Shown: positions 31,812 through 35,934 of the stretch, piece after piece
How the letters are laid out: the number at the start of each line of letters is the position of its first letter
Position numbering within the stretch: the first letter of the stretch is position 1
Translations under genes and position numbers: made by a program
Sequence record: SRR22947727_2090
Length of the DNA: 40,207 bases
Reading direction: 5' to 3' (one strand)
Notes under the pieces: model-generated
What the model saw: the letters and a program-made list of their open reading frames with translations, nothing else
Database searches by the model: none
What the model was told of the DNA's origin: nothing

Positions 31812-31887
31812 TCCCCGATAGCTCAGTTGGTAGAGCGACTGATTTGTAATCAGTAGGTTGCAGGTTCGAATCCTACACCCTGAGCCA
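31812..31887 (+). pseudogene. Chimeric or pseudo tRNA with Thr (TGT) anticodon and non-pairing acceptor stem
   Basis: 76 nt with intact D and anticodon arms, TTCGAAT loop and CCA; acceptor strands TCCCCGA/ACCCTGA pair at only 3 of 7 positions. Confidence 0.75.
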
Positions 31888-31941
31888 AACAAATTTATGC
31901 TTTTTGTGATTAACACACCGTGTTAATAACTATATACTAGT

Positions 31942-32334
31942 ATGGGACATAGTAAAAAAACCAGGAAGCGTGAGTTGCGAGAATGCCCCAAGCACGGTTT
32001 AACCGAGTTTGTTGAGGCCACGAAAAAGAAAGACGGGACGTTTCGTTATAGATGCGCCAAGTGTAGAGTAGATGCTGTATCAAAGAGGCGCAAAGAACTA
32101 AAACGATTAATCGTAGAATACAAAGGCGGAAAGTGTCTGGATTGTGGATTAGAAACAGATAAGTATGGTCTTTATGATCTTCACCACAGAGATCCCAACG
32201 AAAAAGATTTTTCGTTAGGACAAGGAGGTCTAACCAGATCCTTGGAAAAGCTCAAAGAAGAAGCTGACAAGTGTGATCTTCTGTGTTCTAATTGTCACCG
32301 ACTTAGGCACATACTGTTAGAGGAAGAAAAATAA
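31942..32334 (+). CDS. HNH endonuclease (free-standing, homing-like)
   Basis: CPKHG...CAKC; YKGGKCLDCG; DLHHRDP; EADKCDLLCSNCHRLRH. Confidence 0.88.
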   Translation: MGHSKKTRKRELRECPKHGLTEFVEATKKKDGTFRYRCAKCRVDAVSKRRKELKRLIVEYKGGKCLDCGLETDKYGLYDLHHRDPNEKDFSLGQGGLTRSLEKLKEEADKCDLLCSNCHRLRHILLEEEK

Positions 32335-32973: not shown

Positions 32974-33003
32974 TTTAGAAAAAAAAATAAATCTGAATTT
33001 TTT

Positions 33004-33043
33004 AGAGAGTCCCCTTGACAAGGGCTCTCTTTCTTAGTATAAT
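33004..33043 (+). promoter_or_regulatory. Consensus sigma70 promoter centred in a palindrome, leaderless gene
   Basis: TTGACA (33015)-17-TATAAT (33038); AGAGAG..CCCTTG-A-CAAGGG-CTCTCT; ATG 6 nt after the -10 box. Confidence 0.85.
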
Positions 33044-33049
33044 GGGGGC

Positions 33050-33247
33050 ATGAAATACAACTGCCCTAACTGCCTAAGCCTCGACCTCACTATGACCCTA
33101 ACCGTGTTGGACGTAAATCCCAACAACGTTAGAGTAGACCTTGGCGAAAATGACTATAATTATGGTCGTATTATTTGCCAAGATTGCAACTTGTGTGGTC
33201 CTGCTGACTACTTCCTTACTCCAAAAACTAACACTTACCAAAACTAG
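33050..33247 (+). CDS. Small zinc-ribbon protein
   Basis: CPNC...CQDC. Confidence 0.65.
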   Translation: MKYNCPNCLSLDLTMTLTVLDVNPNNVRVDLGENDYNYGRIICQDCNLCGPADYFLTPKTNTYQN

Positions 33248-33251
33248 TCTT

Positions 33252-33536
33252 ATGAACATTCAAGAAATCTGCCGTGCTATCGTTTCCACTCCTCTTACCC
33301 GTGAAGACCTTGATGCTATCTATAATGCTGCTAAGCTAGCCAGTGATAGCCTTGCAAGTATCGCAGGAATGAGTTTCAAGGTTGGAGATGATGTTTACTT
33401 CGATGCAAAGACCCGTGGAGTTATTCAAGGAGAGATCGTTAAGATCAACCGTAAGTCCATTAAGATCTCCGCTAACAATGGTAGCCAATGGAAAGTCCAT
33501 CCTGAGTTTGTCCGCAAAGGTTTCGCACAAGGTTAA
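33252..33536 (+). CDS. Small protein with SH3/KOW-like C-terminus
   Basis: FKVGDDVYF...GEIVKINRKSIKI...WKVHP; ATG at 33252. Confidence 0.65.
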   Translation: MNIQEICRAIVSTPLTREDLDAIYNAAKLASDSLASIAGMSFKVGDDVYFDAKTRGVIQGEIVKINRKSIKISANNGSQWKVHPEFVRKGFAQG

Positions 33537-33539
33537 GTT

Positions 33540-33941
33540 ATGGTAAAAGAAATACATCACGATGATTACGATGGTCCTGAAATTATTTCCTGCCTTCACT
33601 TAGTCGAGCTTTGGCTAGGAGAAGGTGCTGGGGACGGAGTTACTTACAAGGATGGTAAACTCGTTTCACGCACTAAACTAACTGAGAAAGATGCAGAAGC
33701 ATTTATCGCTAAACAGTTATTTAAGTACACCGACTGTGGTGTATCTTTTAGTGCGGACTCTACAGGAATCCACATTGCAGGATACGCAGAAGGTTCAGAA
33801 CAGGAACTGCCTGTTTATTCTTTAGAGTGGGAAACCTTTACTGTAGGGACATTTGAATACACAGTAAAAAAAGCAGACCGAGAAGGTTGTTACGAGTGGG
33901 AATATGTAAACGGTACGCTTGAAGCAGAAGGTTATGAGTAA
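33540..33941 (+). CDS. Hypothetical acidic protein
   Basis: 133-aa ORF, TAATG-coupled to the next gene. Confidence 0.7.
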   Translation: MVKEIHHDDYDGPEIISCLHLVELWLGEGAGDGVTYKDGKLVSRTKLTEKDAEAFIAKQLFKYTDCGVSFSADSTGIHIAGYAEGSEQELPVYSLEWETFTVGTFEYTVKKADREGCYEWEYVNGTLEAEGYE

Positions 33942-34817: not shown

Positions 34818-35309
34818 ATGAACATATTCGTACTAAGTAAGTACCCTCGTATTGCCGCAGAGATGCACTGTGACAAGCATTGCGTCAAGATGATTCTAGA
34901 GACTGCACAGATGCTCTCTACTGCCCATAGGGTTTATAATACCCCTCAGGCTGAGAATCTTTATAAGCAAGCCCATCTAAACCATCCTTGTACAAAATGG
35001 ATTCGAGAGTCTGGTTCTAACTATCGTTGGGCTTGGTCCTTGTACCATGAGCTTCTGCTTGAGTTCGAGAAGCGTAGAGGTAAGAGCCACAAGTCTGGGG
35101 AGCTTCGCCATGACCTAGCCCATACTCCTCATGGGATGCCTGAGGTTGGCCTTACTCCCTTCGCTCAAGCCATGCCTGACGAATACAAGCATGAGGACGC
35201 TGTGGAGGCTTACAGGGCTTACTACATGGGAGATAAGGCAGCAATAGCTGAGTGGAACTGGGGTCGATCTGCCCCTGATTGGTATAAAATAAACTCCACA
35301 AAGTCCTAG
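34818..35309 (+). CDS. Pyrimidine-dimer DNA glycosylase / endonuclease V superfamily protein
   Basis: MNIFVL, CDKHCVKMILETAQMLSTAH, NHPCTKW, FAQAMPDEYK, AYRAYY. Confidence 0.8.
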   Translation: MNIFVLSKYPRIAAEMHCDKHCVKMILETAQMLSTAHRVYNTPQAENLYKQAHLNHPCTKWIRESGSNYRWAWSLYHELLLEFEKRRGKSHKSGELRHDLAHTPHGMPEVGLTPFAQAMPDEYKHEDAVEAYRAYYMGDKAAIAEWNWGRSAPDWYKINSTKS

Positions 35310-35341
35310 AGATATGAATACGACTGCGATATAATAGAGCA

Positions 35342-35549
35342 CAAAGTCGTAAAGAGACACTAGATCTTTTACATTGCGACTGGAAGGATTTCATGCAGGA
35401 CTTGGTTACTAAATCCTATTTATAATAACCTGTTTACCTGTGGAACTCTGGGCAAGAATAATAAACATTAGGAAAAAATCTTGCCATTAAAACAACTTTA
35501 AGATGGGCTATAACAAGCTGCTCTGATTAGACACAGCATCTTAATTAAA
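35342..35549 (+). ncRNA. Putative structured non-coding RNA (four successive helices)
   Basis: No credible ORF; TATAAT at 35330; stems AGTCGTAA/TTGCGACT, AGGATTT/AAATCCT, GGCAAGA/TCTTGCC, TTAAGATG/CATCTTAA. Confidence 0.45.
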
Positions 35550-35638
35550 GCTCTCTGACCCCTTTACTTGTCTTATATGCAAACGTTGTAAAAGAAAGGG
35601 TGGTGCAACTAGAGGTTCAATTCCTCCAGAGAGTACCA
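35550..35638 (+). ncRNA. tRNA-like RNA with acceptor stem, T arm and CCA but no canonical D or anticodon arms
   Basis: GCTCTCTG/CAGAGAGT + A + CCA; GAGG-TTCAATT-CCTC; followed by AACAA like most of the tRNA genes here. Confidence 0.7.
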
Positions 35639-35652
35639 AACAATAAATAATT

Positions 35653-35934
35653 ATGAAGATTATGAAAAAAATGAATAAAAAAATTGAAGGAACAGAGATG
35701 GTTGACAATCCTGAACATTACAATCAGGGTAGTTTAGAGACGATTGAAGTTATCGAGGCTAGTTTAGGAGGTCCTACATCGGATAAAGTTAAAGGTTATC
35801 TAACAGGGAATGTTATTAAATACTTATCTCGCTGTGACTACAAAGGAAAGCTCCTAGAGGATCTTAAGAAAGCTCAATGGTACTTGAATCGCCTTGTAAC
35901 TAATTTTGAAGACAATACACCTGATCCCTCCTGA
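35653..35934 (+). CDS. DUF3310 family protein (T7 gp1.7-like nucleotide kinase domain)
   Basis: VDNPEHYNQG.LETIEVI, GNVIKYLSR, EDLKKAQWYL. Confidence 0.88.
   Translation: MKIMKKMNKKIEGTEMVDNPEHYNQGSLETIEVIEASLGGPTSDKVKGYLTGNVIKYLSRCDYKGKLLEDLKKAQWYLNRLVTNFEDNTPDPS

Follow-up and report, generated by a model that had tools for sequence, protein, structure and literature searches.

A tRNA-like phage element with an 8/4 acceptor/T stack and no D arm in the slot of a canonical tRNA-Ile(UAU) gene

The DNA analysed here is a stretch of 40,207 nucleotides (sequence record SRR22947727_2090), which we call the window. An element of 89 nt, as read from the sequence, runs from 35550 to 35638 on its plus strand and sits in an intergenic gap of 343 nt. 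The gene upstream of the gap (34818-35309) encodes a protein of 163 amino acids that has a weak match to Pyr_excise, and the gene downstream is a DUF3310 gene, whose candidate start codons at 35653, 35671 and 35698 are located 14-59 nt past the element. An earlier note on this DNA had described the element as a tRNA mimic that does not form a cloverleaf. Here, we analysed its architecture and its surroundings, and we compared it with the corresponding sequences of related phages. The observation is confirmed, and the interpretation given to it at the time is partly supported. Judged by these comparisons, the element is a tRNA-derived, tRNA-like phage RNA gene, and the most useful result is the pair of alleles found at this locus, one a canonical tRNA and the other an 8/4, D-armless form.

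Results

Genomic setting

The promoter-like site listed in Table 1 has a counterpart, TTGCAAT...TATAAT, in the same position behind the homologous gene of the nearest relatives, and transcription of the element likely starts there. A scan as far as 36200 gave no terminator-like site. Together with the promoter-like site, this suggests that the leader of the DUF3310 transcript probably contains the element. The leader of the window has a deletion of 13-14 nt relative to that of L001, one of the nearest relatives. In these relatives, as compared over L001:2200-2300, a putative small ORF of 32 codons opens right after the promoter-like site (ATGAAGCACGAA...), and the deletion, in the region 35336-35350 of the window, takes out its start codon. 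A minus-strand ORF at 35541-35708 (55 aa, low complexity) was set aside as a gene, because it runs into the first part of the plus-strand gene and is not the same in the relatives at this place.

Architecture of the element

From 5' to 3', the element reads GCTCTCTG-AC-CCCTTT-A-CTTGT-CTTATAT-GCAAA-C-GTTGTA-AAAGAAAGGGTGG-TGCAAC-TA-GAGG-TTCAATT-CCTC-CAGAGAGT-A-CCA, and it is followed by AACAA. It can be divided into a top half, which consists of the acceptor stem and the T arm, and a body that lies between the first strand of the acceptor stem and the T arm. The acceptor stem, in which GCTCTCTG (35550-35557) pairs with CAGAGAGT (35627-35634), has 8 bp and no mismatch, and its first pair is G.T (G1.U). 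The discriminator A (A73) is at 35635 and the encoded CCA at 35636-35638. The T stem is made of 4 bp, with a G-C closing pair, and carries the canonical loop TTCAATT. Acceptor and T stems form a stack of 12 bp that is split 8/4: the G8:C pair is present, and a 7/5 reading would require an A-C mismatch. Position 8 is G in the element and T in all five tRNAs of the window as well as in the L001 allele. The earlier note had claimed the 8-bp and 4-bp stems, the loop, the discriminator, the CCA and the 8/4 register, and all of them are found. Its remark on the AACAA trailer holds as well, since AACAA or AAACAA follows the CCA in four of the five tRNAs that ARAGORN calls in the window.

The D-arm position is taken by a pyrimidine-rich connector, ACCCCTTTAC (35558-35567), that forms no hairpin, so that the stem of 3-4 bp and the GG-bearing loop of a D arm are both missing. 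It is followed by a homologue of the anticodon arm of tRNA-Ile(UAU). The 7-nt anticodon loop, CTTATAT, is at 35572-35578, with the anticodon TAT at 35574-35576, and it is closed by TTGT/GCAA. The loop is canonical, while the stem comprises 4 bp and a C-A mismatch instead of the canonical 5 bp. The next region, 35583-35611, has 29 nt, against about 5 nt plus the stem end in a class I tRNA, which places about 25 extra nucleotides before the T arm. The earlier note saw one long irregular hairpin in place of the D and anticodon arms; it was right about the absent D arm but missed the intact tRNA-Ile(UAU) anticodon loop. It also proposed that CCCTTT (35560-35565) pairs with AAAGGG (35595-35600) and that GTTGTA (35585-35590) could alternatively pair with TGCAAC (35604-35609) in a pseudoknot. 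The letters are complementary in both cases, and the latter pairing could give a variable arm of 6 bp with a loop of 13 nt; the ensemble probabilities are about 0.35 and 0.00, respectively. No single fold of the region 35583-35611 is statistically supported.

Table 1 Coordinates of the element, of its putative transcript and of L114-type genes in related phages.
Feature	Position	Strand	Basis or remark
Promoter-like site TAGAGA-17 nt-TATAAT	35307-35335	+	consensus scan, 10/12 matches; just after upstream stop
Leader, about 210 nt, promoter-like site to element	35336-35549	+	232/240 ungapped positions as in L001
Acceptor stem, 5' strand GCTCTCTG	35550-35557	+	pair probabilities 0.93-1.00
Connector ACCCCTTTAC, 10 nt, in D-arm position	35558-35567	+	sequence; no D-arm-like hairpin
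Anticodon-arm homologue TTGT/CTTATAT/GCAA of tRNA-Ile(UAU)	35568-35582	+	TGTCTTATATGCA identical to canonical arm of relatives
Extra region, 29 nt, anticodon-arm homologue to T arm	35583-35611	+	holds AAAGGG strand and possible GTTGTA/TGCAAC helix
T arm GAGG-TTCAATT-CCTC, 4-bp stem	35612-35626	+	pair probabilities 0.99-1.00
Acceptor 3' strand CAGAGAGT, discriminator A, encoded CCA	35627-35638	+	sequence; GTACCA common to L001 allele
AACAA trailer	35639-35643	+	seen after other tRNA genes of the phage
L114-type gene in L114	3483-3584		
L114-type gene in L115	2826-2929		
L114-type gene in L180	10142-10243		
L114-type gene in L181	8516-8617		
L114-type gene in L179	12080-12187	-	
L114-type gene in L178			5' end cut

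Chance controls, folding and tRNA detection

We searched the window and 300 dinucleotide-preserving shuffles of it for modules that combine a TTCRANY loop and NCCA with an acceptor/T stack split 7/5 or 8/4. There are six of them in the real window, namely the five ARAGORN tRNAs and the element, and not one of the 300 shuffles has any. The tRNA top half of the element is not due to chance.

The whole element folds with -25.2 kcal/mol (z -2.7). For the body, 35558-35611, z is -0.31 and 72 of 200 shuffles are equally stable; the power of these tests, the pair probability of the GTTGTA/TGCAAC helix included, is low, as z was +0.20, -0.32 and -1.95 when the bodies of three true tRNAs were treated alike. 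The minimum-energy fold hides the anticodon loop inside a long hairpin. Forcing the anticodon hairpin costs 4.6 kcal/mol, a cost that discriminates poorly, because the same folding model gives no cloverleaf for the canonical tRNA-Ile of L001 either.

An absence of any full canonical hit had been predicted for this non-cloverleaf element, and the detectors agree. ARAGORN made no call there by default, nor with -i and -mt at default thresholds. Its tRNA modes with relaxed score thresholds returned implausible models only, and its tmRNA mode gave no call, the relaxed threshold included. With Rfam, the tRNA model RF00005 had no match in 35450-35700 up to E 10 (gathering score 29 bits), the tmRNA model had no match at the element up to E 10, and none of the 4227 models was matched by the element at its curated threshold. 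One sub-threshold match spans the element (35550-35636), to Plastid-ycf2 on the minus strand; it reaches 17.9 bits, where the gathering score is 65.7. We rejected it because this model also scores the antisense of a true tRNA-Met at 53 bits and thus mirrors a tRNA top half. A tmRNA was rejected as well, as the earlier note had done: besides the missing tmRNA calls, the pair at position 3 is U-A and not G3.U70, and there is no tag reading frame.

Occurrence in public sequences

Contigs from four public runs, which belong to three studies, have no difference from the window across 35550-35638. Three are labelled seawater metagenome, and one is possibly the source sample. The sequence of the element is real and not an assembly artefact.

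Scans of viral_contigs with four to five exact or gapped patterns of the element, which detect near-identical sequence only and would let a distant family escape, gave no diverged relative; most patterns had no match, and one matched eight unrelated stretches. No diverged relative was found in a structural scan of 165 loci, and the matches of blastn and nhmmer in 85 and then 165 loci were confined to the flanks and an anticodon block of 13 nt. A 20-mer made of T arm and acceptor sequence had three matches in genome_contigs (185,579 species genomes), none of which is tRNA-like. By this sequence search, the 3' half of the element gives no sign of copying from a host tRNA or an att site. In a phage collection of 50,697 records, blastn gave no match at E 1e-5. 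The best match with E up to 10, which has 33 nt and 91% identity and lies antisense to a CDS of a T5-like phage, was judged to be a chance match as the reading frames differ. In the nearest record, G001, the region is absent and there is no tRNA.

One of the eight stretches matched by a pattern, L171:1674-1729 on the minus strand of a giant-virus metagenome contig, resembles a tRNA-Ile(UAU) gene in which about 25 nt are inserted directly behind the anticodon loop. The insert is similar to the introns of eukaryotic tRNA-Ile(UAU) genes, and the gene is unrelated to the element.

A canonical allele in nearly identical phages

Public contigs were searched with the 163-aa upstream protein, which gave 80 viral and 80 metagenome loci. 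The nearest relatives are L001, L086, L087 and L088, of which L087 is the same contig as L001. Their flanking proteins are 95-98% identical to those of the window, and their flanking DNA is about 93-97% identical. The intergenic DNA of these relatives aligns to that of the window through 35551 and resumes at GTACCA. Exactly in the slot of the element, all four have a canonical 77-nt tRNA-Ile(tat), located at 2425-2501 in L001, where it scores 56 bits against the Rfam tRNA model.

In the comparison with L001, 232 of 240 ungapped positions are identical in the 5' flank and 275 of 295 in the 3' flank, and 50 of the 100 alignment columns match between the element and the L001 allele. The two alleles have in common the first 2 nt, a 13-nt block TGTCTTATATGCA, GTACCA, and GTTCAA in the T loop. 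The block TGTCTTATATGCA, which covers the anticodon loop together with the inner pairs of its stem, is identical in L001, L086, L087 and L088, and it is also the best match of the element among 104 ARAGORN tRNA calls (identical copies merged) from 176 loci and the window. Five of the seven acceptor pairs differ from those of L001 on both sides, and so does the T stem. All 12 stem pairs of the element are nevertheless intact.

The earlier note had reasoned that a normal cloverleaf in relatives would make the element a decayed copy. The cloverleaf is there, but a decayed copy does not fit the half-matching alignment and the intact stem pairs. Slow decay by point mutation was rejected, because a flank divergence of 3-7% predicts about 90% identity with mismatches in the stems, and the helices are perfect instead. 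On the strength of this alignment, the element is a replacement or remodelling of the canonical tRNA-Ile(UAU) allele and not the product of decay. Stems that differ in sequence and yet pair point to an origin by replacement or recombination with another gene of tRNA type.

tRNA genes and recombination in this phage

With 14 of the 104 ARAGORN calls and six distinct sequences, tRNA-Ile(tat) is a regular member of the tRNA set of this phage group. ATA accounts for 98 of 480 Ile codons in the 22 long ORFs of the window, which fits the A-ending bias that is served by the other tRNAs of the phage. Neither ARAGORN nor Rfam found another tRNA-Ile in the window.

A tRNA chimera is located at 31814-31889 on the plus strand. 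Its 5' half is of Asn type, as in L086:1304-1390 and in L003, and its 3' part, with the anticodon and the T arm, is of Thr(tgt) type, with the junction inside D-arm sequence that the two share. The acceptor strands do not pair, the CCA-AACAA end is kept, and the Rfam match covers model positions 8-63 only, with 49 bits. This sequence is clearly that of a dead tRNA, 3.7 kb from the element. Furthermore, the window and L086 form a mosaic across all of the 6.5 kb compared. We infer that tRNA-gene recombination clearly occurs in this phage.

Other irregularities were noticed in the same comparison. The Asn-type tRNA at L086:1304-1390, in a lineage that has the canonical tRNA-Ile, keeps its acceptor stem and its D and T arms intact, and a 9-nt insertion enlarges its anticodon loop to 16 nt; ARAGORN labels it tRNA-???(gtta). 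The ORF that follows the chimera, at 31942-32334, has HNH-like motifs that were seen by eye in its translation, and Pfam gave no hit. In a comparison of 32994-33941 of the window with L086:4221-4713, a block of small ORFs (33050-33542 in the window) precedes the dCMP deaminase gene in the window and follows the DUF3310 gene in L086. The two copies are 76% identical, and gene order is thus shuffled between phages that are otherwise 92-98% identical.

Irregular tRNA-like genes elsewhere in the phage group

Six loci of related marine phages, L114, L115, L178, L179, L180 and L181, contain irregular tRNA-like genes of one family, which we call L114-type (Table 1). The acceptor stem and both the D and the T arm of these genes are normal, and their end is ACCA; they score 38 bits with the Rfam tRNA model and get no ARAGORN call. 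A conserved insert of 34-38 nt replaces the 7-nt anticodon loop. In L179, the acceptor and T stems are wholly different in sequence and are still paired, and L114 and L115 differ by one compensatory pair in the closing stem. In L114 and L115, the homologue of the 163-aa gene is immediately followed by the irregular gene, in the slot that the element has in the window, while in L180 and L181 it directly abuts a tRNA-Ile(UAU). The conservation of this family indicates that maintained, non-canonical tRNA-like RNAs exist in this phage group.

More distant phages have an element of 91 nt that is nearly identical in five contigs (L038:786-876, L041:788-878, L045:1359-1449, L048:1726-1816 and L151:870-960). 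One of its stems is acceptor-like, and its T arm, which carries TTCGATT, has 5 bp; ACGG-TGCA-CCGT may form a hairpin, and another stem, of 7 bp, encloses a loop of 13 nt. ARAGORN made no call for it, and an Rfam search of two of the five loci, L038 and L045, with an E limit of 0.1 left it unmatched.

Discussion

We lean towards the reading that the element is a remodelled, non-decoding derivative of tRNA-Ile(UAU); whether it is under selection or is a by-product is undecided, with a neutral by-product slightly ahead. The tRNA-Ile(UAU) gene of this phage was rebuilt by replacement or recombination with another gene of tRNA type; the inner 80 nt were exchanged or remade, and the helices were kept. 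Transcription would start at the promoter-like site and take in the downstream DUF3310 gene. A stable, CCA-ended RNA of about 89 nt would then probably be excised by RNase P and the 3'-end enzymes, since these enzymes, and EF-Tu as well, are known to read mainly the acceptor/T helix (established knowledge; PMC5389517). Moreover, RNase P is described in a review as accepting many tRNA-like substrates (PMC11143913). Decoding of AUA would most likely have been lost, as far as the architecture tells: in the absence of a D arm the usual D-loop/T-loop elbow cannot form, and with an anticodon stem of only 4 bp this makes ordinary decoding unlikely.

The case for a by-product consists of the single clone, the dead chimera 3.7 kb away and the mosaic locus. 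A maintained RNA is suggested by the 8/4 register and by the conserved L114-type family in related phages. The G8:C pair of the element, as opposed to the T8 of the window tRNAs and of L001, suggests that the parent was probably already of the 8/4 type, or else that the stack is under selection. A freshly broken 7/5 tRNA is not expected to show an 8/4 register with G8, and this counts toward a selected, non-decoding tRNA mimic. With its tRNA-like top half and a tRNA-Ile-type anticodon loop held on a stalk, such an RNA could bind a host or phage factor as a decoy or sponge; nucleases that target tRNAs, modification enzymes, the CCA enzyme and sensors of uncharged tRNA would be candidates. The perfect 12-bp stack with its deliberate-looking register and the exactly kept anticodon loop would suit such a role, as would the L114-type genes, with their covarying acceptor and T stems in the same slot, and the phage T5 annotation of a 'tRNA-like stable RNA with unknown functions'. 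The mimic is nonetheless a doubtful alternative in our judgement, because the element is a single allele with no diverged relative in the viral_contigs patterns or the 165-locus scan, its body fold is not separable from shuffles, no candidate partner gene lies near it, and the same genome holds a dead tRNA chimera.

Two other readings give the element an active part in gene expression. It could be a working tRNA-Ile(UAU) of unconventional build, in which case an 8/4 tRNA that lacks the D arm and has a long extra arm would still be charged and read AUA. The loop CUUAUAU, A73, the CCA, the T loop and the 12-bp acceptor branch are all intact, ATA is in regular use in a window that has no other tRNA-Ile, and the GG in the linker 35601-35611 could perhaps replace G18 and G19 of the D loop. 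Against it, the D arm is wholly absent, the anticodon stem has four pairs and a C-A mismatch, and the tRNA detectors do not accept the element even at relaxed settings. No D-armless elongator tRNA is known to work with the bacterial machinery. According to Mukai et al. (PMC5389517), 8/4 tRNAs were translation-competent in E. coli, and 8/4 tRNA-Ser and tRNA-His are reported in marine phage tRNA clusters, but the six allo-tRNA(UAU) species tested there were inactive in E. coli translation. D-armless tRNAs are functional in mitochondria, as reviewed in PMC7609411, and this weighs against a loss of decoding. Taken together, we hold a working tRNA to be quite improbable. We give the lowest probability to an mRNA processing signal, in which RNase P or 3' trimming would part the leader of about 210 nt from the DUF3310 message. 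Its position would fit, with the promoter-like site on one side and, 14-59 nt beyond its end, the candidate starts of the next gene on the other; many tRNA-like structures are cleaved by RNase P in the account of the review cited above (PMC11143913), and the t-elements of plant mitochondria offer a parallel (PMC1920247). The canonical tRNA of the relatives would do the same job, however, which leaves the remodelling unexplained, and this reading overlaps with that of a remodelled derivative.

The remodelled, non-decoding derivative remains the reading that we prefer. A bolder and improbable possibility is that the element gives rise to a maintained, processed 8/4 RNA that displays a working tRNA-Ile(UAU) anticodon loop on a D-armless body, either as a decoding tRNA or as a mimic of the top half. 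If this were true, it would either be an elongator tRNA that lacks the D arm and decodes with the bacterial machinery, the first of its kind, or belong to a wider phage habit of making top-half mimics; in the latter case, phages would convert their own tRNA genes, alongside the L114-type family in the same slot.

The locus offers a natural pair of alleles in nearly identical marine phages, an ordinary AUA-reading tRNA-Ile and an 8/4, D-armless form. This pair permits a clean comparison of how far the lower half of a tRNA is needed in processing, charging and decoding. It could also show whether phages make non-decoding mimics of tRNA genes, an idea that has been raised for the T4 and T5 RNAs and for allo-tRNA(UAU). 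Even as a mere by-product of recombination, the element would document the reshuffling of tRNA clusters at conserved tRNA segments in these phages.

Comparison with known systems

Phage T4 encodes the stable tRNA-like RNAs C and D. In phage T5, RNA1 (NC_005859, 30501-30644) has 144 nt and carries the annotation quoted above. The element resembles these RNAs in being phage-encoded, in its location near tRNA genes and in its tRNA-like tail and top half. It differs from them in that the T5 and T4 RNAs are longer and known to be expressed, while expression of the element is a prediction. There is no sequence similarity between the element and the T5/T4 RNAs, as blastn against the phage collection gave matches at chance level only.

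The D-armless tRNAs of mitochondria, as presented in PMC7609411, have a short connector in place of the D arm, and their acceptor, anticodon hairpin and T arm are recognisable, as in the element. Unlike the element, they are shorter, have co-evolved factors and have no long insert. The mitochondrial mode of ARAGORN does not accept the element.

The canonical phage tRNA-Ile(UAU) of L001 (2425-2501) shares with the element the slot, the anticodon, the 13-nt core of the anticodon arm, G1.U72, C2-G71, the type of T loop and the encoded A73-CCA. Compared with this tRNA, the element has no D arm, a stack of 8/4 instead of 7/5, an anticodon stem of 4 bp with a mismatch, and about 25 extra nucleotides. 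The Rfam tRNA model matches the L001 allele and does not match the element.

The closest described kind is that of the (8/4) allo-tRNAs (Mukai et al., Nucleic Acids Res 2017, PMC5389517), and the likeness that the earlier note had drawn to them, and to stable CCA-ended phage RNAs, is apt. The split of the stack (8/4 or 9/3) that defines allo-tRNAs is found in the element, while their D-arm and anticodon-stem features are not. As characterised in that report, allo-tRNAs have a D arm like that of tRNA-Sec, with a long stem and a tetraloop, and a 6-bp anticodon stem, neither of which is present in 35558-35583 of the element. The settings also differ, when compared by description: allo-tRNA(UAU) is placed in soil Acidobacteria near toxin-antitoxin or transposon genes (PMC5389517), and the element lies in an operon of a marine phage of lytic type. 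The same source gives UAU as the most abundant anticodon group among the allo-tRNAs and describes irregular structures for it. The element resembles them in the 8/4 split of its 12-bp branch, in its UAU anticodon and irregular body, in a region that could form an extra arm, and in that translational activity is doubtful (PMC5389517).
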